The notes beneath the pieces are model-generated. The model ran no database searches. It saw nothing but the letters and a program-made list of their open reading frames with translations, and was not told the origin of the DNA. A DNA stretch of 64,000 nt from Parcubacteria group bacterium (GTDB lineage: Bacteria; Patescibacteriota; Minisyncoccia; Moranbacterales; UBA2206): NCBI GenBank assembly GCA_041674205.1, contig JBAYWF010000002.1, forward strand, positions 46,940 to 110,939, given 5' to 3'. This document shows positions 13,412-64,000 of the stretch, piece after piece; position 1 is the stretch's first letter; each line of letters opens with the position of its first letter. A program made the translations under genes and the position numbers.

Positions 13412-13485
13412 GGGCCCTTAGCTCAGTTGGCTAGAGCGCCTCGTTTGCACCGAGGAGGCCGGGAGTTCGAATCCCCCAGGGTCCA
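13412..13485 (+). tRNA. tRNA-Ala (anticodon UGC)
   Basis: cloverleaf read by eye; G3:U70 in acceptor stem; anticodon loop tTTGCAc; CCA not encoded. Confidence 0.85.
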
Positions 13486-13551
13486 CAGCATAAATTTTTA
13501 ATTTTAAAATTTTTAATTATAGAGTCGCTTTCGCGACGAATTTTTATTTAC

Positions 13552-13625
13552 GGGCTTATAGCTCAGTTGGTTAGAGCGCGTCACTGATAATGACGAGGTC
13601 TCAAGTTCGAATCTTGATAAGCCCA
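13552..13625 (+). tRNA. tRNA-Ile (anticodon GAU)
   Basis: cloverleaf read by eye; anticodon loop cTGATAa. Confidence 0.85.
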
Positions 13626-13631
13626 CATCGA

Positions 13632-13668
13632 CAAAAAAACAATCCATCATAATGGATTGTTTTTTTTG
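13632..13668. terminator. strong bidirectional rho-independent terminator after tRNA pair
   Basis: aaaaaAACAATCCATcataATGGATTGTTttttttt. Confidence 0.8.
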
Positions 13669-54647: not shown

Positions 54648-55157
54648 TCACTTCAACGCTTCAGCCAGCTTGTCCAGAGACTGGTTCCAGCCCATATCCA
54701 TATCCTTCAAATCCTGTTCGTCGAAACGGCTCGTGTCCGGATAGCGCAAAGTGAATTTAGTCTTATTACCCATCTCTTCAAGCATAGTTTCCACTGTTGT
54801 CTCATATGGCACATCACTGCCCATGCCATAATAGGCCGGTGTCACCGGATTGCCTTTCTCATCGGAAAAATAGTCCGTCACCACGATTTTCTCCGGTGCT
54901 TTGACCTCACGGAAAATACCGGCGCTCCAAAAATCATGCGCTTCACCGCCTGGCACGACCACTCCGTGCATACAGTAGAGATATTTCCCGCCTTCGCGCA
55001 GATCAATCTCGATGTGCGGGGCCGTGAAATCTTTCGGACCCCACCATTTTTTCACCATCTCAGGAGTCGTCCAAGCCTCCCAAACTTTTGCGCGCGGAGC
55101 GTCAAAAACGCGTGTGAATTCCAAACCTTTTTCATTTTTTCGCATCGTATTATCCAT
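54648..55157 (-). CDS. SRPBCC / AHSA1-like domain protein
   Basis: VFDAPRAKVWEAWTTPEMVKKWWGP. Confidence 0.65.
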   Translation of the reverse strand: MDNTMRKNEKGLEFTRVFDAPRAKVWEAWTTPEMVKKWWGPKDFTAPHIEIDLREGGKYLYCMHGVVVPGGEAHDFWSAGIFREVKAPEKIVVTDYFSDEKGNPVTPAYYGMGSDVPYETTVETMLEEMGNKTKFTLRYPDTSRFDEQDLKDMDMGWNQSLDKLAEALK

Positions 55158-55217
55158 ATGTTTTCACCTCCTTTCCATATGACTAATACAGCCACTATGA
55201 GCCCGGGCTTTCAAATA

Positions 55218-55571
55218 CTATCGGATGGCAAAGCCAGCCACGAATACCGCCAGCCACACCAGGCCGCTCACTATCGTATAAGCCGGCGGCACCCGTTTTC
55301 CCGATCCTTCACGATAGTTGATCGAGGACCAGACGGCTTTCCCGCCCATGAGCGCCAGCGCGACCAAGCCAGCAACCGAATGGAAATCCAAGGCGAAACC
55401 CGCGGTCATAAGTGACATAAGCGCCGTCCCGGTCAGGTCAAAAACGAATCCCCACCAAAAAAGGGCCAGGGTCGCGGACGAGACCGCTTTCCGCGAAAAT
55501 TCCTGGAAGACGCTTGTGGCATAAAGGACCAAGGCGAGGACGACTGCGATGATGGCGGCTGGAAGCAACAT
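55218..55571 (-). CDS. small multi-TM membrane protein
   Basis: 117 aa, 4 predicted TM. Confidence 0.45.
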   Translation of the reverse strand: MLLPAAIIAVVLALVLYATSVFQEFSRKAVSSATLALFWWGFVFDLTGTALMSLMTAGFALDFHSVAGLVALALMGGKAVWSSINYREGSGKRVPPAYTIVSGLVWLAVFVAGFAIR

Positions 55572-55609
55572 ATTATTTTTTTCTTAAATTATTAATTATT
55601 TCCCGATTT

Positions 55610-56623
55610 TCAATTCTTGGCCAGCAAGTTGGTGATGAGCGCGATCATGGTTTCTTTTTCTTTCGGATGGCTTTCCGCCACGAGCAAGGCCAGCGCCGTC
55701 AAAGCGTTGTCATTGATTTTCTTTTCTCCATTGGCGCCGTAGAGATAATTATTGCGGTCCAAAAAATAGATAAACAGGAAAGCTCCCATACGTTTGTTGC
55801 CATCGGAAAACGGATGATCCTTGATTACTAGGTACAGCAAGTGCGCCGCCTTGCTTTCCAAATCAGCATACAATTCCTTGCCGTCGAAAGTTTGGTATAG
55901 GTTTTTGATGACCGATTCGAACGCGCCACCCCTTTCATTGCCGAAAATATCACCCGCTTCTTTCTTAGCCAGCAATTCCCTTTTGACTTCCGTCACGATT
56001 TTTTGGCAATCTTCATACCGCAAAACGAATTTGGCCTTGCCTGCGCGCGCCTTCTTCAAACTGCTCTTATCATATTGCTCCAAGAGGGTCAAAGTCTTGG
56101 CGTAGTCCGCCAACAGATCCATAATTTCAACCTCTTGCCCTTTCAACGTTTTCGCGTGGACTTTTTCCCGCAAGAAGGAAATGGTTTTTTGCAGTTTTTC
56201 AAAATTTTCCTTTTCCTGCAAAAGCCTTTTCTGATTGATGGTGTAGCCTTTTAACAAATGCTCCCGCAATACATTGGTCGCCCAGATGCGGAATTGGGTG
56301 GCGCGAGTCGAATTGACCCGATAACCGATAGAAATAACAGCATCTAGATTATAAAATTGGATTTTATAGACTTTACCATCAGAGGCAGTATGTTCCAAAA
56401 TGGAACTAACTGAACTCTTCTTCAGCTCGCCGGATTTAAAGACATTTTGCAAATGTTTTGTAATTGCAGGTCTCTGCGTACCAAAAAGCATTGCAATTTG
56501 ATCCTGCGTAAGCCAAACTGTTTCTTTCTCGAATTTAATCTCCAATTCAACCTCCCCTGCCTTGGATTTGTAAATTATGACTTCACCTTCTTGTGGAACC
56601 TTTTTTAAGTTTTGTTTTACCAT
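55610..56623 (-). CDS. RhuM-like N-terminal domain fused to Fic (AMPylase-type) domain
   Basis: C-terminal HPFSDGNKRMG matches Fic motif HPFx[DE]GNGR; N-terminal KIQFYNLDAVISIGYRVNS RhuM-like. Confidence 0.7.
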   Translation of the reverse strand: MVKQNLKKVPQEGEVIIYKSKAGEVELEIKFEKETVWLTQDQIAMLFGTQRPAITKHLQNVFKSGELKKSSVSSILEHTASDGKVYKIQFYNLDAVISIGYRVNSTRATQFRIWATNVLREHLLKGYTINQKRLLQEKENFEKLQKTISFLREKVHAKTLKGQEVEIMDLLADYAKTLTLLEQYDKSSLKKARAGKAKFVLRYEDCQKIVTEVKRELLAKKEAGDIFGNERGGAFESVIKNLYQTFDGKELYADLESKAAHLLYLVIKDHPFSDGNKRMGAFLFIYFLDRNNYLYGANGEKKINDNALTALALLVAESHPKEKETMIALITNLLAKN

Positions 56624-56715
56624 ATTTTTTAACTTATTTGATTATAGTGATATAGTATCATTATAATCGAATCCGTCAACCCTTCACGACCTTGTTTATT
56701 GCAACTATCAAAAAA

Positions 56716-56747
56716 CGCATGGACATTCTCACATTCTCGAGAATGTG
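56716..56747. promoter_or_regulatory. 32-bp near-perfect palindrome upstream of Fic gene (GAATGT half-sites, centred on CTCGAG)
   Basis: ACATTCTCACATTCTCGAGAATGTGAGAATAT. Confidence 0.6.
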
Positions 56748-56756
56748 AGAATATGT

Positions 56757-57380
56757 TCATTGCCCATCATCATCCAGGAAATTCCCGAGCTCAGAAATGT
56801 TCAAAAAATCTATGCCGGCGGCCTGGGCCGCGCCGCTGTCGGCCCGGCTATCGCCGATAAGCAGGTATCGCGATTTCGGAAAGCTCCCGTCAAAAATCAA
56901 GGAAAAACCGTCCGCCCGCGGTTTGATATACCGGACATCGTTGCGCGTAACGATCTTTGCGAAAAATTTCGCCCAACCCAGCTCCTCCAAAATCAGCTGG
57001 ATCGTCCGCCGGTCATTGGATGTCCATAAATATAATTCGGCATACTTCCGGGATAATTCGAGCAGGGGCGCCGCGAGCGGCGACAAGTCGTAGCCGTAAA
57101 AAAAATCTTTTTCAATCCCGAAATTCATTTCATTCATCCTCTCGCTGGCCGCATCGCCACCTTTTTCGATGCAAAGATTTATCTTCTCGGAATAATTCAA
57201 ATCAGGGCTCTCGCTGAAATCCAACCCGAACTCGGAAAAAATGCCATCCAGCTCCTCGCACCAAGGCTTCCAATCGACCAACAACGTGCAGAGCGTCTTG
57301 TCGAAATCGAAAATAATATGCTTGATGTCTTTTTCTTGGATGTAGTTTTCGAACTGTTCTTTTTTCATGTTTTTTTGCAA
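56757..57380 (-). CDS. HAD-superfamily hydrolase
   Basis: IIFDFDKTL (DxDxT motif). Confidence 0.7.
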   Translation of the reverse strand: MQKNMKKEQFENYIQEKDIKHIIFDFDKTLCTLLVDWKPWCEELDGIFSEFGLDFSESPDLNYSEKINLCIEKGGDAASERMNEMNFGIEKDFFYGYDLSPLAAPLLELSRKYAELYLWTSNDRRTIQLILEELGWAKFFAKIVTRNDVRYIKPRADGFSLIFDGSFPKSRYLLIGDSRADSGAAQAAGIDFLNISELGNFLDDDGQ

Positions 57381-57397
57381 ATAATCAAACCCAAAAT

Positions 57398-57440
57398 GGG
57401 AAATTTAATACGTATAAAGGTAAGTGTTAAAATCATTCAC
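57398..57440. promoter_or_regulatory. motif B copy (immediately upstream of HAD gene)
   Basis: GGGAAATTTAATACGTATAAAGGTAAGTGTTAAAATCATTCAC. Confidence 0.55.
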
Positions 57441-57656
57441 TGATCTCGATTTAAGTATAGCACCTTAAAATATATGGCCAAATAAAAATACTACTGATGA
57501 AAACCACTGCCGGTGTCAGCCTGCCGCATACGCGAAACATCAAAGGGGAAATAAAAAAAGGCCGCTTCCTGGTTAGGGGCGACCTTCGTGAAAAATTATT
57601 CGAGTTTATTTATATATGCTTGTTTGTACGTGGCATTCTTTTTCTTCGGGAGATGA

Positions 57657-58283
57657 TTAGGTGGCAGGCTGCATACCTTTAAGCTTATTTATCCCTCTGC
57701 GTTCAGCCTCGATTATTTGAATGAAAATAGGATAATAACCTTTCTTATCATCGATCGGGTCGCCATAAATATTATACGCCATATTCCCCCGCCTTTTTGT
57801 TTCCCACAAGAAACCATCGAAACTCTCTTTGCCAGCATTGCAAAGAAACATTTCCCCGGACTTAAGTTCCGGATGCCGGTCATTTGAAAAGGGTTTTTCA
57901 TGGATGATATTGATTTCTCCGCCTTTTTCATATGCCCTTAAATCCTGACTTAATCCGATTGGTTCCGATTTGTAATCCTTGGGACCATTCTTGAAAAAAG
58001 CCATCCCGACGCAACCCACCAAAGTCAATGAATTCGTCCGGGCAAAAGCGAGAAAATCTTCAAAAACTTCTCTCCATGTATTACTGAAAGGCGAAACACC
58101 TTCATTAACAGAGATGGCCATGTATCTTGTCATACTATGGACTTCATTTTTAATCCGGAAAATTGCATGATCAGGAGATGATGGTGGAGATTCCACCAGA
58201 GCATGCGGGAAAAAACTAAAGCTGGAAAGTTGCAAAACTGGCGTTTCTCGCTCTCCTTTGGTTGGCTCTCTAAGGATGGCCAT
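57657..58283 (-). CDS. hypothetical protein (start possibly internal at MTRYMAIS)
   Basis: ORF only; no motif recognised. Confidence 0.35.
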   Translation of the reverse strand: MAILREPTKGERETPVLQLSSFSFFPHALVESPPSSPDHAIFRIKNEVHSMTRYMAISVNEGVSPFSNTWREVFEDFLAFARTNSLTLVGCVGMAFFKNGPKDYKSEPIGLSQDLRAYEKGGEINIIHEKPFSNDRHPELKSGEMFLCNAGKESFDGFLWETKRRGNMAYNIYGDPIDDKKGYYPIFIQIIEAERRGINKLKGMQPAT

Positions 58284-58489
58284 GGCTTTTCCTCCACTGT
58301 TGATTTTTTATCTATGAATCACATTGTAATTGTTTGTAAAAGTAATATGGCATCCTACTAATAAAACGCGATTTTGTCAATAAAAAAATGCCTTCACAAC
58401 GTGCCTATTATCCCGCCGTGAAGGAAAAATTTATTTCCGAAGGTCCAACCTTCGAAGCCAATGACACGTAGCCGACTCCTCAATTAAAA

Positions 58490-58726
58490 TCATTCTATCC
58501 TCCGCCAATGCCGGTGTTCGACATAGACGATCCGCCACCAGGTTTGGCCCAGAAAATATCCGCCGATGAGGCCGGCAAGGAAAAACGCAGCACTGGCATA
58601 TCCCGGCAAGCCGTCCACCGCCCCGCTATTCAAATAGCGGATATCCAGCAAGCCGAACGCAATCACCGCCAACAGTACTCCCAAAAACATCGTGAGGATG
58701 ATATAGATTGTTTTTTTGATTTGCAT
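58490..58726 (-). CDS. small 2-TM membrane protein
   Basis: 78 aa, two hydrophobic helices. Confidence 0.4.
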   Translation of the reverse strand: MQIKKTIYIILTMFLGVLLAVIAFGLLDIRYLNSGAVDGLPGYASAAFFLAGLIGGYFLGQTWWRIVYVEHRHWRRIE

Positions 58727-58740
58727 TTGGTTTTGATTTG

Positions 58741-58786
58741 AAAAAATTTAATACGTATTAAGGTAAGTATTTAATCATGTATATCC
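58741..58786. promoter_or_regulatory. motif B copy (upstream of small membrane protein gene); contains perfect 14-bp palindrome TTAATACGTATTAA
   Basis: AAAAAATTTAATACGTATTAAGGTAAGTATTTAATCATG. Confidence 0.55.
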
Positions 58787-59364
58787 ACAACAACGAACTC
58801 CGTTTCTTTCACCGCATACACCGGCAATTTTTCCGCGTAGCCTTCCAGCATTTCCAATTTATCCCTTCCACTCGTTGCCGCATATTCCCCGGTCGACAAA
58901 TAGTGCGCGATCATTTTCGCATGCAAAAAATCCAGGCCTGCTAGGATTTTATCATGATCTTGGTCATAATAGTATTTCATAAACACCAAAGCGCCGGCTG
59001 AAGAACCTGCCACGACCTTGCTCTCGAATAATCTTTGAAGATCAGGAACTTTTTCCAACTGGGTCTGCAGCATCGGCGTCGATCCTCCGCGGATATAGAC
59101 GACATCGCACCATTCCACCTGTTTGGCGAATTCCCCCGGATCGGCGCTGGCGATTTGGAATCCGATTTCGCGGCCATCCGCGCGTGCCTCAAATTTATTT
59201 TCATGCTCCCCTGCCAATCCAGCCCACCGTTCCTTTTCCACGGCGAAATACGTCAACAAAATCTTGGCCGGTCCGGAAACCGAGCCCAGGATTTCTTTAT
59301 AGTATTTATCGTTGCTTTCACAAGGCACGCCCGCCATGCCGCCGTGGAGGAAATATTTGGTCAT
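58771..59364 (-). CDS. peptidase S51 / class I glutamine-amidotransferase-like protein
   Basis: YIRGGSTPML...VVAGSSAGALVF nucleophile elbow. Confidence 0.55.
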   Translation of the reverse strand: MTKYFLHGGMAGVPCESNDKYYKEILGSVSGPAKILLTYFAVEKERWAGLAGEHENKFEARADGREIGFQIASADPGEFAKQVEWCDVVYIRGGSTPMLQTQLEKVPDLQRLFESKVVAGSSAGALVFMKYYYDQDHDKILAGLDFLHAKMIAHYLSTGEYAATSGRDKLEMLEGYAEKLPVYAVKETEFVVVDIHD

Positions 59365-59376
59365 AGGTTTTGGTTG

Positions 59377-59406
59377 GAATATTTAATATACGTTAATACA
59401 ATCACC
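59377..59406. promoter_or_regulatory. motif B-related half copy (upstream of S51 gene, next to motif A)
   Basis: GAATATTTAATATACGTTAATACAATCACC. Confidence 0.4.
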
Positions 59407-59421
59407 TTGAATTATTTTGTT

Positions 59422-59446
59422 GGCTTTCTGCAGAATGTGGGAATGT
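59422..59446. promoter_or_regulatory. motif A copy 1 (upstream of S51 peptidase gene)
   Basis: GGCTTTCTGCAGAATGTGGGAATGT. Confidence 0.6.
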
Positions 59447-59458
59447 TGTTTTTTATAT

Positions 59459-60037
59459 CTATTCCCTTCCGATCTTGTCCAACAATCCATCAAAGGGGAA
59501 ATTTTCAGTATAGATAATCGGGTTTTCAGCTTTAGTCGGACGTTCGAAATTAATAGCATCTTCTGTCAGCCAGCCTGAGGGAACATCATGCCTGTCGCGA
59601 GTTATTTTGTTGCGCGCCTTCCTTTCCTTCAACACCTCAACGGGAATATCCAGATATACTAAAGAAAAATCGACACCCATATCTTTCGCTACGGCACGCA
59701 GATCTTCACGCTGGCGGAAAAGCAAGCAGTTGTCGTCAAAAACCACCGAATTGCCGATGAGCAATTGGTTCTTGGCTCCCTGCACGGCAATCGGCCAGAG
59801 ATTGTTCCACAGCGAATCATCATCGTCGTCCGGCGTGCTTTCAAGGGCTAATATTTTTTCAATGGCAAAATAGATGCGATCGCGCCCGACTATTTCCGCC
59901 CCAAAAGACTCGGACAATTTCTTGGAAAGTGTCGTCTTTCCGGAAAAAGCTTCCCCGCAAAGAATAATGAGACGCTGTTTTTCCTTTTTCATATCATTTT
60001 TAATGTTAATTGATTGTGGATTATCCCGCACTGACAT
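59459..60037 (-). CDS. P-loop kinase (AAA_33 / zeta-toxin-like fold)
   Basis: LIILCGEAFSGKTTLSKKL Walker A. Confidence 0.55.
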   Translation of the reverse strand: MSVRDNPQSINIKNDMKKEKQRLIILCGEAFSGKTTLSKKLSESFGAEIVGRDRIYFAIEKILALESTPDDDDDSLWNNLWPIAVQGAKNQLLIGNSVVFDDNCLLFRQREDLRAVAKDMGVDFSLVYLDIPVEVLKERKARNKITRDRHDVPSGWLTEDAINFERPTKAENPIIYTENFPFDGLLDKIGRE

Positions 60038-60067
60038 TCTGTCTTTCTGCAGAATGTGAGAATGTCG
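60031..60067. promoter_or_regulatory. motif A copy 2 (upstream of P-loop kinase gene)
   Basis: CTGACATTCTGTCTTTCTGCAGAATGTGAGAATGTCG. Confidence 0.6.
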
Positions 60068-60072
60068 TTTTA

Positions 60073-60372
60073 CTAGAATGTTCTTATGAATTTCAGGAAG
60101 AGCTTGCCATAGGGCGAAAGTGAATGCCGGATTCCCCTACCTTGGCGGGTCTTATTGATTAGTCCGGATTGCACCAGTTTTTTAGTATGTTCGGAAATGG
60201 TTTTGATATTGCCTCGCATGATCGCGCAGATGCTATCCAGCGTGATTCCGTCATGTTCAGCCACTATAAACAAAATCTCTATCCTTCGGTGGTTAGCTAC
60301 GCCTTTCAAGTGCCGTTCCATCTGCCGGGGAGTTTTTTGCTTCTTTTCAATTTTTCTCTTTTTGGCTAACAT
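60073..60372 (-). CDS. ArsR/SmtB-family winged-helix transcriptional regulator
   Basis: HRRIEILFIVAEHDGITLDSICAIMRGNIKTISEHTKKLVQSGLI HTH. Confidence 0.7.
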   Translation of the reverse strand: MLAKKRKIEKKQKTPRQMERHLKGVANHRRIEILFIVAEHDGITLDSICAIMRGNIKTISEHTKKLVQSGLINKTRQGRGIRHSLSPYGKLFLKFIRTF

Positions 60373-60445
60373 AATTTAATTTTATAACCGCCAACACACT
60401 ATCATATTTCAATAATATCACAATCCTACCATCCCACAACATCCT

Positions 60446-60472
60446 GGCTTTCTGCAGAATGTCGGAATGTCG
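60446..60472. promoter_or_regulatory. motif A copy 3 (upstream of ArsR gene itself)
   Basis: GGCTTTCTGCAGAATGTCGGAATGTCG. Confidence 0.6.
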
Positions 60473-60627
60473 CGGTGGCATATGTGTGATATGTGCGGGC
60501 TATTTCAGATTGAAGGCTTGGTGCGGGATGGATTGCTCGAGAGCGGCAAGGTCGGATTGGGTGGATTTTTGGCGAGCCTGCAAGCGGGCGATTTTTTCGC
60601 GATTTACATCCAGCCGCATGATGATCC

Positions 60628-61095
60628 CTAATTCAAAATCCAAATCGAATAATTAAGATAGCCGGCGAAGCTGACCCAAAGAATATATGGCGCCAGAAGC
60701 CAGGCGGCTGTCTTGGAAATTTTGGCGAAGGCGATGATTGTGGCAAGGATGGCCAGCCAAAGAAAAGTCATCTCTAAAAGCGCGCCGCCTGGGGAATGGA
60801 GGCCGAAAAAGACAATCGACCAAAGCGCGTTCAAAACCATCTGGATCCCGAAAGTCCAAAAAGCCAAGCGTTTGTTTTTTCCGCCTTCGTCCGTCCAGAC
60901 AAGATAGAGCGCGTAGCCCATCAAAAGAAACAGCGCCGTCCAGACCGGACCGAATACCCACGCCGGCGGATTGAGAGCGGGCTTCACCAGCACCGGATAC
61001 CAATTTTTCACCGAACCGATCGTAAAAAAACTCCCCAATCCTCCCGCCAATTGCGGGATAAGAAGTGAAATGATGAGTTTGTATATTTTTTTCAT
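60628..61095 (-). CDS. tspO: TspO/MBR (translocator protein) family membrane protein
   Basis: 5 TM, Trp-rich, WYPVLVKPALNPPAWVFGPVWT. Confidence 0.75.
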   Translation of the reverse strand: MKKIYKLIISLLIPQLAGGLGSFFTIGSVKNWYPVLVKPALNPPAWVFGPVWTALFLLMGYALYLVWTDEGGKNKRLAFWTFGIQMVLNALWSIVFFGLHSPGGALLEMTFLWLAILATIIAFAKISKTAAWLLAPYILWVSFAGYLNYSIWILN

Positions 61096-61206
61096 ATATT
61101 TATTTTATTTTTTAATTGAGCAATAAAGGTACCCGACCCATTTTAATCATGGTTTTGTGACATGATTGGATGCGCTAATGCTTATTTTTTGCTTTTATTA
61201 TATCAT

Positions 61207-61244
61207 GCTGACATTCTGGCTTTCTGCAGAATGTGGGAATATCG
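61207..61244. promoter_or_regulatory. motif A copy 4 (upstream of tspO)
   Basis: GCTGACATTCTGGCTTTCTGCAGAATGTGGGAATATCG. Confidence 0.6.
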
Positions 61245-61288
61245 TTGTTGCTGTTTTTTTAAAAATAAACCTTCAGGACTAGCTTGAA

Positions 61289-61768
61289 TTATTTTACAAA
61301 ATTTTTGATTGCACTAATAAACTTTCCCGGTTCTGCCTCAATAGCCTTTTTCAATTCATCCCTGGAAAACCATCTGATCGCTTCCACCTCTTTCGGTTCA
61401 ATTTTAAATTCATTCAATCCTCTATCTAAAACTATTTTGTACCATTGGCAGAAATAATTATAGGTTCGGCTAACCCTGACCTTTTGAGCCTTCTCAAATT
61501 CAATTCCGCTCAAACCGATTTCCTCCTCTGCTTCTTTCACGATGTTGCTGTCATATGTTTCTCCCTCATCATTTGTTCCGGAAACGGCCGAACCCCATTT
61601 GCCAGGACTATGGCTCTTATTGAAAGATCTTTGAGCCAAAAGAACCTCGCCCTTGCTATTCTCAATCCACAAAGCACTGACGCGATAGATGTCATCGCGA
61701 ATCACTGAATCTCTTTCCTTGCTTCCGATAATTTCATCCTGCTCATTAACTATGATTATTTTTGCCAT
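61289..61768 (-). CDS. Nudix hydrolase
   Basis: Nudix box GTNDEGETYDSNIVKEAEEEIGL. Confidence 0.7.
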   Translation of the reverse strand: MAKIIIVNEQDEIIGSKERDSVIRDDIYRVSALWIENSKGEVLLAQRSFNKSHSPGKWGSAVSGTNDEGETYDSNIVKEAEEEIGLSGIEFEKAQKVRVSRTYNYFCQWYKIVLDRGLNEFKIEPKEVEAIRWFSRDELKKAIEAEPGKFISAIKNFVK

Positions 61769-61778
61769 AAAAAAAATT

Positions 61779-61828
61779 AAATTACTGAATTCCCTCCATA
61801 GGCGAGTAAAAAATTCATGAATTGTAGT
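61779..61828. promoter_or_regulatory. motif C copy split by ~20-nt insertion (upstream of Nudix gene)
   Basis: AAATTACTGAATT-ccctccataggcgagtaaaaa-ATTCATGAATT. Confidence 0.45.
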
Positions 61829-61878
61829 CGAGGACCGTCCTTTTTAAGCATGAATTTTTTCCCGTATCGGGCTTGGTT

Positions 61879-61916
61879 AAAAATTTAATACTTATCAAGG
61901 TAAGTATTAAATTACG
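61879..61916. promoter_or_regulatory. motif B copy (between NERD and Nudix genes)
   Basis: AAAAATTTAATACTTATCAAGGTAAGTATTAAATTACG. Confidence 0.5.
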
Positions 61917-61919
61917 TAA

Positions 61920-62714
61920 TTATATAACTGTCATTTTTTTATTTTCTTCACCTGATCTGATATACCGAGAAATTTGAAAAGATATTTCATTAACATCATC
62001 CCCACTAAATATTTCCTTTTCATTCGCTAGATATTTCGGTAAAGCTTTTGGCTCTAAAACCCACACGTCATTATTTTTCTTACTTGCCTTAATGAACCAT
62101 CCTGGATACACAACCACCGCCTTAACTGAAACATCTCTGCCTGTTATTTTGAGAATAAGTTTTTGAAGCCAATCCCGTTGCGCCTTTGCTTGGATAATTG
62201 GTTTTTCTGATATAGTCCCTCCGTTCATTCGAATACCTTTACTATCGTAATCAATAATTGCCTGTCCCTTCCCAGGCTTGCTCCATGTTTTAGTTTCAAT
62301 CGTAAACGCTCCAGCTGGCCCGATGATAATGTGATCTAAGTTAAATCCATCGCCAATCAGATCATGAAAAACAAAATATCCCTTGGTTCTCAGCGATTCT
62401 AAAAATTGACCAACTTCTCTTTCACCATCCCTGCCCAATTTTCTATTACTTATTTCCTTTTTTGCATACATATATTTTGCAATAGCATATCCAGTGACAA
62501 CGATTGCAACGAACGTCCATACTTCTGGCAAGGGTGGCTTGTCGTATGTTTTTTCATACCATTGAAGGAGCGCTACGACAATGGTAAATATAGCCAACAA
62601 AGCTGGGGAAATAATGCTATCATAAGCAATATCTCGAATTTCTTCGGTTAGTGATTGACCTGGATAACGCAAGGGCTGAGCTTTTAGTGGCGACTTCTTT
62701 TTTATATTGGCCAT
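61920..62714 (-). CDS. NERD (nuclease-related) domain protein with N-terminal TM helices
   Basis: GRDGEREVGQFL...YFVFHDL...DHIIIGPAGAFTIETK. Confidence 0.6.
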   Translation of the reverse strand: MANIKKKSPLKAQPLRYPGQSLTEEIRDIAYDSIISPALLAIFTIVVALLQWYEKTYDKPPLPEVWTFVAIVVTGYAIAKYMYAKKEISNRKLGRDGEREVGQFLESLRTKGYFVFHDLIGDGFNLDHIIIGPAGAFTIETKTWSKPGKGQAIIDYDSKGIRMNGGTISEKPIIQAKAQRDWLQKLILKITGRDVSVKAVVVYPGWFIKASKKNNDVWVLEPKALPKYLANEKEIFSGDDVNEISFQISRYIRSGEENKKMTVI

Positions 62715-62724
62715 TTTTTTATTT

Positions 62725-62754
62725 TAATTACTGAATTAATTCATGAATTATGGT
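62725..62754. promoter_or_regulatory. motif C copy (immediately upstream of NERD gene)
   Basis: TTAATTACTGAATTAATTCATGAATTATGG; overlapping palindromes TGAATTAATTCA and ATTCATGAAT. Confidence 0.55.
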
Positions 62755-62816
62755 CGGAAATGATTAATTAATGATTGCTCATTATTTTGCCTTAAAAGGT
62801 GCCTGACCCCATATAT

Positions 62817-63455
62817 CTATTTCAATTTGATGTAAATTTCAGGATCACCCTTGATCAGATTTTTGATTTCTTCTATCCTATTTTGCAAGAAATAATCGAA
62901 CTCTTCCGGAATGACGTTCGGAAAATCATAATCATGTGAAACGACCAGGACAGTTTCAGCATCCTCTTTCAGTTTTCTCACTAAGGGCTTCAAATAGCTG
63001 AACGTGTCTATTATGACATCTCTCGCCTCATCGATATCATAGCCATCAGTCTCGCTGAATCTTTTTGCGATTTCAGCCAAGTTTTCATCATTGATCAATG
63101 CATACATCTGAATAAAAGAATCCTTAGTTGGTATATATTCATCAATTTGCTCCAATTTGAAATAGCCGACCAATGTACCTAATTGACTCATATATTGCTC
63201 ATCTCCCATAGCTGAATTTATCAAGGCTGATACCGAACCCATTTTTAAATAAATATTTTCCAGCCCAGCTAAAAAATCATCACCCCCATATCGGTAGGCG
63301 TCTTTTAATTCTGAAAAATGCTCAAAAAATTTATTTTCTTCCGATTCACCAGCCTTCTCCACGGAATCGGCTTTCTTCACAAAATCTAAAAACTCAGCCA
63401 AAGTTTTTTCAGCTTCATCCTTGTTGAACGCAAAAATTTCTGTTATAACACTCAT
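62817..63455 (-). CDS. acidic hypothetical protein
   Basis: 212 aa, D/E-rich, no motif recognised. Confidence 0.4.
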   Translation of the reverse strand: MSVITEIFAFNKDEAEKTLAEFLDFVKKADSVEKAGESEENKFFEHFSELKDAYRYGGDDFLAGLENIYLKMGSVSALINSAMGDEQYMSQLGTLVGYFKLEQIDEYIPTKDSFIQMYALINDENLAEIAKRFSETDGYDIDEARDVIIDTFSYLKPLVRKLKEDAETVLVVSHDYDFPNVIPEEFDYFLQNRIEEIKNLIKGDPEIYIKLK

Positions 63456-63462
63456 TTTTTTA

Positions 63463-63505
63463 GGTAAGTAATTAATTACTGAATTAATTCATGAATTAAA
63501 ATTAT
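63463..63505. promoter_or_regulatory. motif B tail + motif C copy (upstream of acidic 212-aa gene)
   Basis: AGGTAAGTAATTAATTACTGAATTAATTCATGAATTAAAATTA. Confidence 0.55.
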
Positions 63506-63592
63506 TTCTGAAACACAAACAAATGTTCATGCATAATTAGGAGGAAATTACTTTCCTTGGAGCGATTCACCCAAAAGCCTGTGGCTTTGCAA

Positions 63593-63796
63593 TTAAAATC
63601 CTTCTGGCTCATCAATTTTTCCTTTGCAATTTATACAAAAGAATTCTTGTGATTCAACACTTTCATCTCCATGAAAATCATTCCACTGCCTCGTTTCTAG
63701 ATCGAAAGAATAATAACGAGTTTCTTTTTGAACAATGCCAATAACTTCGTTAGTATTCCTGCAATGCTTACATGTATATTTTTTTAATTTTTCCAT
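63593..63796 (-). CDS. small zinc-ribbon protein
   Basis: CKHC...CINC paired CxxC. Confidence 0.45.
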   Translation of the reverse strand: MEKLKKYTCKHCRNTNEVIGIVQKETRYYSFDLETRQWNDFHGDESVESQEFFCINCKGKIDEPEGF

Positions 63797-63797
63797 A

Positions 63798-63983
63798 TCA
63801 TTTTTCTTTTTTATCTTTCAGGTTAAAATGATAAGTTTTTTCATCTTTCAATTCAACTCCAATAACTTCATCAAACTCCATATCTTTGAGCCAAGCACTT
63901 TCTTCTTTGAAATTATCAAATGCTTCCTCCGCAACATTGCCTTTCCCCCATCCTAAAACTTGGCAATTTTCAACATCTGACAT
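63798..63983 (-). CDS. small hypothetical protein
   Basis: 61 aa ORF adjacent to Zn-ribbon ORF. Confidence 0.3.
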   Translation of the reverse strand: MSDVENCQVLGWGKGNVAEEAFDNFKEESAWLKDMEFDEVIGVELKDEKTYHFNLKDKKEK

Positions 63984-64000
63984 GTCACTTTCTGAATCAG

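Follow-up and report, generated by a model that had tools for sequence, protein, structure and literature searches.

INTRODUCTION

Regulators of the ArsR/SmtB family, which include the metal sensors SmtB, CzrA, and CadC as well as autorepressors without a metal site (HlyU, SdpR, and the BigR/SqrR type), share a winged-helix fold of ~100 amino acids (aa). They act as homodimers that bind an operator and are released from it by an effector. Their classical operator has a 12-2-12 geometry, and SmtB and CzrA have been reported to occupy one operator with several dimers. Here, we analyze a repeated 32-bp palindromic element, together with the gene for a 99-aa protein with the predicted fold of this family that lies among its copies, in a stretch of 64,000 nucleotides (nt) from a Parcubacteria group bacterium (contig JBAYWF010000002.1, positions 46,940 to 110,939; this whole stretch is referred to as the window). 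An initial annotation had proposed that the element is an ArsR-type operator and that the regulator gene is autoregulated. Comparative evidence from flanking palindromes, covariation between the predicted recognition helix and the site, and promoter position supports this proposal, and we conclude that the repeats are probably the operators of the 99-aa protein.

Three other described systems resemble parts of this arrangement. The C proteins of restriction-modification systems are small autoregulators that bind as tetramers to a promoter-overlapping operator of ~35 bp with two adjacent dyads, and their paralogues fall into specificity groups. The attC sites of integrons are 57-141 bp long, carry R''/L''/L'/R' boxes (RYYYAAC ... 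GTTRRRY), and form arrays with the IntI integrase at the array end. Repetitive extragenic palindromic (REP) elements are species-specific, reach tens to hundreds of copies per genome, and occur with a Y1 transposase (RAYT). The Patescibacteria (candidate phyla radiation, CPR) account for a large share of bacterial diversity; they are mostly uncultured and have tiny genomes with few regulators. In the literature searched, we found no regulator-operator pair described for this group and no relevant paper on the motif or on the regulator family.

RESULTS

The window contains a repeat of four 8-bp units

A 23-nt core (CTTTCTGCAGAATGTSRGAATRT) occurs four times without mismatch on the plus strand (59424-59446, 60043-60065, 60448-60470, and 61220-61242); the chance expectation is 0.00 (100 shuffles, with no match in shuffled sequence). 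The four-copy core of the initial annotation is thereby confirmed, with its start coordinates corrected by 0-10 nt. The full element is 32 bp, reads ACATTCCGACATTCTGCAGAAAGCCAGAATGT in the direction of the genes, and is laid out as two 8-bp units (ACATTCnn ACATTCTn) followed by two inverted ones (nAGAATGT nnGAATGT). Copies 2, 3, and 4 are full length, with a single outer-arm mismatch in copy 3 (ACATCCTG), and the outer inverted repeat, which had been assigned to two copies, is thus present in three of the four. The inner palindrome TTCTGCAGAA and the direct repeat GAATGT-NN-GAATRT are found in all four, as had been claimed, and copy 1 has lost the fourth, promoter-proximal unit. We refer to this asymmetric form as type A; together with a related palindrome of type X (see below), it accounts for five sites in 64 kb, all of them inside 4.5 kb. 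All local genes are on the minus strand, and the features around the type A copies are as follows:

61211..61242, minus strand: putative operator copy 4, type A (ATATTCCCACATTCTGCAGAAAGCCAGAATGT), upstream of TspO and 46 nt past the NUDIX stop codon
60628..61095, minus strand: TspO/MBR gene, 155 aa, putative target (Pfam E value 2.4e-51)
60439..60470, minus strand: putative operator copy 3, type A (ACATTCCGACATTCTGCAGAAAGCCAGGATGT), 66 nt before the regulator start codon
60073..60372, minus strand: gene for the 99-aa winged-helix regulator of a divergent ArsR/SmtB family (Pfam, profile, and fold matches)
60034..60065, minus strand: putative operator copy 2, type A (ACATTCTCACATTCTGCAGAAAGACAGAATGT), 7 nt past the regulator stop codon and 41 nt before the kinase start codon
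59459..59992, minus strand: P-loop kinase gene (AAA_33; 177 aa from Met16), putative target
59415..59446, minus strand: putative operator copy 1, truncated (ACATTCCCACATTCTGCAGAAAGCC, then unrelated sequence), with the S51 gene behind it
58771..59364, minus strand: peptidase S51 gene, behind truncated copy 1

The proposed distance of 20-80 bp between motif and start codon holds for the S51 peptidase (50 nt), the kinase (41 nt, start at 59992), and the regulator (66 nt) but not for TspO (115 nt). The five sites also lie shortly behind a stop codon, at 2 nt (HAD hydrolase gene), 7 nt (regulator), 12 nt (kinase), 29 nt (remnant of 39 aa; see below), and 46 nt (NUDIX).

As a side observation, every site variant, in the window as well as in loci L021-L100, has a central hexamer of the form CTNNAG (CTGCAG, CTCGAG, CTTAAG, CTTGAG, and CTGGAG). 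These hexamers coincide with classical restriction sites, and the islands also carry restriction-modification genes.

The regulator resembles ArsR/SmtB proteins without metal ligands

The 99-aa protein scores marginally against two Pfam families, i.e., HTH_5 (23.2 bits; cut-off 22) and MarR (28.2 bits; cut-off 24.6). Its nearest NCBIfam model is the ArsR/SmtB metalloregulator model NF033788, at 34.6 bits and below the curated cut-off of 55, while a profile search of the PDB returned HlyU first (E value 9e-8). In an AlphaFold2 model (predicted local distance difference test score, pLDDT, 86.6), helices at residues 15-25, 28-39, 45-52, 56-68, and 87-98 and strands at 72-77 and 80-85 follow the order a1-a2-a3-aR-b1-b2-a5, as in ArsR/SmtB proteins. 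The best full-length Foldseek matches of this model are HlyU, ArsR, SqrR, CadC, SmtB, and CzrA, with a template modeling (TM) score of ~0.7 in both directions. Structures of the MarR family align over the core alone, with a target-normalized TM score of ~0.5; MarR proteins have ~140-150 aa, with N- and C-terminal dimerization helices flanking the winged helix, and based on this core-only match and the length of 99 aa, we rejected this family. As modeled, the regulator has the ArsR/SmtB fold and is closest to HlyU.

Helix a5 of the family reads SPYGKxFxKFIKTF. In an alignment of 16 sequences, we found no invariant Cys and no set of a5 His/Asp/Glu residues that could serve as metal or metalloid ligands; metal sensing is, therefore, not indicated. 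A word-indexed search returned 735 relatives, of which the named ones are nearly all from Moranbacteria, Parcubacteria, or Patescibacteria, and an exhaustive profile search of 1.84 billion representatives gave 192 clusters at 50% identity (E value ≤1e-10). An exact look-up of the 99-aa product gave no match because the source annotation has an 82-aa product that starts at Met18.

Palindromes bracket the regulator gene and covary with its recognition helix

Using the family profile, we fetched 80 metagenome loci, which yielded 70 distinct combinations of protein and site with regulators that are 54-86% identical. With a palindrome defined as a 32-nt stretch with at least 12 of 16 self-complementary pairs, 59 of the 69 scorable loci have one within ~100 nt upstream of the regulator gene, at 0-70 nt from the start codon. 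At the regulator stop codon or gene end, 65 of 70 have one; among 120-nt segments drawn at random from these loci, the proportion is only 2.1%. The downstream copy has two preferred starting points relative to the end of the stop codon, 8 nt ahead of it in 21 cases and 17 nt ahead of it in 18, and the operator sequence (ACATTCTGA or ACATTCCAACATTCTTGA) therefore encodes T-F-stop or T-F-Q-H-S-stop. In the window, the last codons of the regulator gene (ACA TTC TAG) form an extra in-phase half-site ahead of the copy that lies 7 nt after the stop codon. The number of copies per genome is low, 112 of 144 sites adjoin a regulator gene, and positions 9-22 are invariant among the 34 unique type A sites.

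Both copies within one locus are of the same variant, while the variants differ between clades. The variants follow residues of the predicted recognition helix, which are numbered here as in the window regulator:

Lys-Lys at 64-65: centre TGCA, in 19 of 21
Arg-Arg at 64-65: centre TTGA/TCAA or TTAA, in 66 of 71
Gly61: centre TCGA, in 10 of 10
Gly60: units altered from ACATTC to ACATCC, ACATAC, or ACAAAC (non-TTC), in 17 of 18
Ser60: TTC units, in 95 of 100

The helix of the window regulator (TISEHTKKL) agrees with its TGCA-centred sites. On a 557-kb Parcubacteria scaffold, two paralogues are each bracketed by their own variant (P0022 with centre TGCA; P0084 with ACATTCCGACATTCTTGAGAATGTCGGAATGT), and at least seven sites were found in the part of the scaffold that was examined. 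The covariation spans several distinct classes, and its pattern is what direct readout of the site by the helix would predict.

The possibility that the sites are operators of a different protein encoded outside the window, with the ArsR-like gene as the most frequent member of its regulon, would account for sites far from any regulator copy (L002, L010, L012, and L015). It leaves unexplained, however, why the site variants follow recognition-helix residues of the 99-aa protein and why two paralogues in one genome each have their own variant, and we regard it as very unlikely.

The sites abut -10 boxes and cover the -35 position

Each full-length copy in the window is followed by a -10 box:

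61197..61205, minus strand: extended -10 box TGATATAAT, with the hexamer beginning 8 nt past copy 4
60423..60431, minus strand: extended -10-like box TGGTAGGAT, with the hexamer beginning 10 nt past copy 3
60020..60025, minus strand: -10 box GATAAT, 8 nt past copy 2

The upstream TG is present in two of the three, and none of these promoters has a TTGACA-like hexamer at -35. Because the site ends 8-10 nt before the -10 box, it spans approximately -52 to -21 and, thus, covers the -35/spacer region. The overlap with -35/-10 elements that the initial annotation suggested checking is, therefore, found in part: the sites abut the -10 boxes and cover the -35 position, but a recognizable -35 box is absent. 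In many other loci, among them L024, L030, L038, L047, and L069, an extended -10 box of the TGnTATAAT type begins 3-11 nt past the upstream copy, and the start codon lies 7-60 nt further on; the box past copy 3 in the window is the counterpart of these. Among the 138 unique sites, a -10 hexamer with five of six matches lies within 14 nt on the gene side in 53 and on the opposite side in 24. The asymmetric type A site is oriented in the same way as the genes in all cases (18/18 in the metagenome loci and 4/4 in the window).

Two modes of action were considered. In the more probable one, each 32-bp site would be bound by two or more dimers, and the bound protein would block RNA polymerase and repress transcription. 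The copy upstream of the regulator gene would then mediate autoregulation, the copy at its stop codon would control the next gene (kinase), and the other copies would control accessory neighbours, i.e., TspO and, weakly, the S51 peptidase; a releasing signal is also to be expected. Alternatively, the regulator may bind the same sites but activate transcription by replacing the -35 contact, in the manner of a class II-type activator centred near -36. The lack of recognizable -35 hexamers behind the sites, a site that covers exactly this position, and the fixed orientation of the type A site relative to the promoter are in line with this idea. However, activators that contact sigma need fixed phasing, whereas across loci, the gap that separates the site from the box ranges between 0 and 11 nt; this variation fits better with occlusion than with activation. 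Moreover, extended TGn boxes, which function without a -35 box, are frequent among the -10 elements, and ArsR/SmtB proteins are typically repressors; HlyU, the nearest relative with a solved structure, carries the label 'transcriptional activator' in its deposition and acts as an anti-silencer. We, therefore, consider activation improbable.

The motif recurs in other genomes, almost only in Patescibacteria

A scan of 185,579 species genomes (one per species) with the pattern CTTTCTGCAGAATGTNNGAAT returned 15 loci, of which 11 are labelled Patescibacteria, Parcubacteria, Moranbacteria, Paceibacteria, or plain 'bacterium' and three Omnitrophota, Planctomycetaceae, and Bdellovibrionales. The whole 32-mer is present in all of them except L009, the Planctomycetaceae locus and apparently a chance match. 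In L003, L008, L013, and L014, regulator homologues (tblastn, 68-82% identical) have sites on both sides. The suggestion that the motif might be found next to ArsR homologues in other genomes thus gave a strongly positive result, with matches almost confined to Patescibacteria and with flanked homologues. No match to a generalized 20-base pattern was found among the IMG/VR viral contigs.

A symmetric variant also recurs, often in tandem with the asymmetric one at a spacing of ~50-58 nt (L004, L011, L012, and L015). Upstream of single genes, mixed tandems (A-X or A-X-A, 50-75 nt apart) were seen in L004 (1268-1412), L011, L012, L015, and L030, which suggests combined control by two paralogues. 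Separately, the unrelated genomes of L001, L004, L005, and L015 share a flank (CTCGATCAAAAATCCCCAAAAA or similar) a few tens of nt before the operator.

A type X palindrome precedes the RhuM-Fic gene

The fifth site and the gene that it precedes are as follows:

56723..56754, no strand: type X palindrome (ACATTCTCACATTCTCGAGAATGTGAGAATAT), 15/16 pairs, 2 nt past the HAD stop codon and 99 nt before the RhuM-Fic start codon
55610..56623, minus strand: RhuM-Fic gene, 337 aa, candidate defence protein class PDC-S23

Besides this site, the 64 kb contain only two long near-perfect palindromes; it differs from the core by three mismatches on either strand. The Fic promoter palindrome that had been reported at 56716-56747 thus exists, but at 56723-56754; it belongs to the same motif family, as its supposed shared half-site implied, but is a variant associated with a different paralogue. 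Elsewhere, sites of type X (centre TCGA) bracket regulators with the helix TISGH (L047, L050, L066, L069, and L077), and type X is, therefore, probably not the best site of the 99-aa protein. We found no second paralogue that could own it in the window or in L016, which covers 10 kb beyond the window, and we regard it as a putative orphan, the site of a paralogue that differs in centre specificity.

The sites lie in an accessory and defence island

Based on open reading frames (ORFs) and Pfam matches, the transcription order is NERD, NUDIX, TspO, the 99-aa regulator, P-loop kinase, peptidase S51, two unknown ORFs, HAD hydrolase, and RhuM-Fic. A match to PDC-S23, a candidate defence family of PADLOC, was obtained for the RhuM-Fic protein (E value 1e-124). 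The source is a 100-kb metagenome contig, on which this region lies within an accessory/defence island upstream of the EF-Tu/S10 genes; the island contains Bro-N, Fic, MazE, two methyltransferases, DpnI, NERD, NUDIX, and more genes. Past the window end (L016), the genes are DpnI, two methyltransferases, MazE, a second Fic, and Bro-N. Because defence genes are also found beyond the window, we place the operators in a defence/accessory island.

The genes behind the sites vary between relatives. The minus-strand sequence at 61096-61210 shares a -10 box, the 5' untranslated region, and the first five codons (ATG TCA CAA AAC CAT) with L008 2290-2453, where the same operator precedes an alpha/beta-hydrolase gene in place of TspO; from these retained parts, TspO replaced the hydrolase gene behind a kept operator-promoter unit. 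Operators precede TspO in L021 as well (Pfam confirmation) and probably in L050 (by eye), and in L072, a RhuM-Fic gene immediately follows the regulator. Clustering of the neighbouring ORFs in the 80 loci revealed a small GIY-YIG protein (12 loci) as the only recurrent neighbour and no conserved partner gene or recombinase near the site-regulator-site module. In L035 and L044, the downstream operator is followed by a gene that was judged by eye to be tRNA-like (GCGGGATCGTCTAATGGTAGGAC...); targets may, therefore, include RNA genes.

The shuffled neighbourhood raises the possibility that the palindromes serve as recombination sites and delimit mobile gene cassettes, with the regulator as a cassette or accessory factor and with the repeats marking cassette junctions rather than promoters. 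Site-gene-site-gene arrays in the window, L030, L069, L076, and L092 are as expected from this scenario, as is a pool of genes shuffled behind the sites (TspO, NUDIX, RhuM-Fic, GIY-YIG, and GNAT), the first three of them in several lineages. In addition, 60 of 122 alignment ends lie within 15 nt of a site (2.4% expected), homology is confined to the module, and the synteny of the window with L008 ends at 59421, inside copy 1. On the other hand, homology confined to the module is equally expected if the module alone is under strong selection, and the swap of TspO for the hydrolase breaks five codons into the gene and not at the site. No recombinase or other conserved partner gene is found near the module, and the sites are too short for integron attC and lack its cores. 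A 1.9-kb insertion that distinguishes L027 from L024 has another direct repeat at its borders, and we rejected it as an operator-bounded cassette. Finally, covariation of helix and site and adjacency to -10 boxes are predictions of a regulator. Altogether, we consider recombination sites as the primary function to be even less probable than activation. Our sequence comparisons indicate that shuffling from genome to genome involves both the module and the neighbours that operators bound.

As for the least likely explanation, in which the palindromes are RNA or single-stranded DNA hairpins at gene 3' ends (for termination, processing, or stabilization) and the association with the regulator is incidental, the position of every copy 2-46 nt after a stop codon and the 14-16-bp stems that symmetric variants would form (type X, -21 kcal/mol, z -4.9) speak for it, but we can hardly maintain it, given that folding in the gene direction is weak and inconsistent for the type A copies (-8 to -16 kcal/mol, z -1.7 to -2.6) and absent for copy 1, no copy is followed by a U tract, the ACATTC units are conserved fourfold and across lineages beyond mere pairing, the genome uses classical hairpin-plus-T-run terminators (e.g., 13634-13665), and no Rfam family matches. 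Specifically, Rfam at a permissive threshold gave nothing relevant at 55000-64000. Three further candidates were rejected: an intrinsic terminator (weak or absent folding of type A, no U tract); an integron attC site (32-bp length, no cores, no integrase in the island or among recurrent neighbours, and a strand bias of the whole window); and a repeat of the REP/RAYT or miniature inverted-repeat transposable element (MITE) type (low copy number, a sequence common to classes of Patescibacteria, and no transposase among the neighbours).

Other sequence features in the window

Between TspO and operator copy 3, a 39-aa ORF on the minus strand (60500-60619; MRLDVNREKIARLQ...HQAFNLK) shares 71% DNA identity with L005 327-480, which is there the end of a longer reading frame; from this match, the ORF seems to be what remains of the C-terminal part of a larger gene. 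An identical AT-rich sequence of 27 nt (TTAATTACTGAATTAATTCATGAATTA) occurs at 62724-62750 and 63472-63498, upstream of the NERD gene and a 212-aa ORF, and a similar sequence is found in L004.

Another intergenic motif is conserved as well; it has a palindromic core, which reads TTAATACGTATTAA or AATTACGTAATT, with ATTACTTAC or GGTAAGT behind it. In the window, it lies at 57404-57425, 58747-58768, and 61884-61905, in degenerate form near 59383, and with AATTACGTAATT at 61910; it precedes the starts of the HAD, 78-aa membrane-protein, and NUDIX genes by 20-115 nt. It recurs in many Patescibacteria loci (L006, L012, L026/27, L032, L047, L050, L066, and L077), sometimes adjoining the 32-bp operator, and may be the site of another regulator or a promoter element.

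The region at 13412-13665 on the plus strand contains genes for tRNA-Ala and tRNA-Ile, followed at 13634-13665 by a 32-nt hairpin (15/16 pairs) with T runs, which is probably a classical terminator.

DISCUSSION

Our analyses suggest that the repeats are, with good probability, operators of the ArsR/SmtB-like winged-helix protein encoded at 60073-60372. Several observations weigh against this interpretation. The loci used for the covariation are phylogenetically related, and their counts, therefore, make independent events seem more numerous than they are. On the gene side, -10 boxes are enriched only about twofold, and the spacing between site and box is not constant. Every copy is also located just past a stop codon, which makes a role at gene 3' ends possible; copy 1 is truncated; and the copy upstream of TspO is 115 nt from the start codon. 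The type X site is without a cognate regulator within 74 kb, and its centre lies ~75 nt upstream of the expected start point of the sole good sigma-70-like Fic promoter. Lastly, because 8-bp units in a 32-bp site are unlike the known 12-2-12 geometry, the stoichiometry of binding is guesswork.

As interpreted here, the system is of a known kind, i.e., an autoregulated ArsR/SmtB-type regulator with promoter-overlapping operators, and its imperfect inverted-repeat site at the regulator's own promoter, for which position and covariation are established, is as in that family, as is the predicted fold. The proposal of an ArsR operator is thus supported, with adjustments. Rather than 12-2-12, the 32-bp site has four 8-bp units; the protein has neither conserved Cys nor a5 ligands, and its NCBIfam score is below the cut-off. 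The second site, which throughout the family is conserved at the regulator gene's stop codon or overlaps it, and the near confinement of the family to Patescibacteria are likewise unlike ArsR/SmtB. The combination of a small autoregulator and a two-dyad operator resembles C proteins and their C-boxes, and the island in the window holds restriction-modification genes; however, C proteins have an Xre-type helix-turn-helix and are encoded directly upstream of a restriction endonuclease gene, whereas here the fold is a winged helix and the neighbours are highly variable. Similarly, arrays of small co-oriented accessory genes that are split by an imperfect palindrome and shuffled in order between relatives recall integrons, but the 32-bp site lacks RYYYAAC/GTTRRRY cores, has no integrase nearby, abuts -10 boxes, and covaries with a DNA-binding protein. 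Taken together, the departures from described systems are the four-unit 32-bp site, an end-of-gene operator that often encodes the end of the gene, paralogue-specific variants, the restriction to Patescibacteria, and operator-promoter units in front of shuffled accessory and defence genes.

We tentatively speculate, while considering it rather unlikely in full, that site-regulator-site is a self-contained portable cassette. There would be several orthogonal pairs, with specificity set by helix residues 60, 61, 64, and 65. Their operator-promoter units would serve as landing pads for exchanged accessory and defence genes (TspO, NUDIX, RhuM-Fic, GIY-YIG, and others), and the operators would double as recombination joints that function without an integrase.

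For the Patescibacteria, the analysis yields a regulator family, its 32-bp site, a candidate recognition code, and a list of putative target genes. The overlap of the operator with the last codons of the regulator gene and the natural specificity variants are of interest for studies of protein-DNA recognition and as orthogonal repressor parts. Moreover, this regulatory code is directly testable: the 99-aa protein and synthetic DNA suffice, and culture is not needed.

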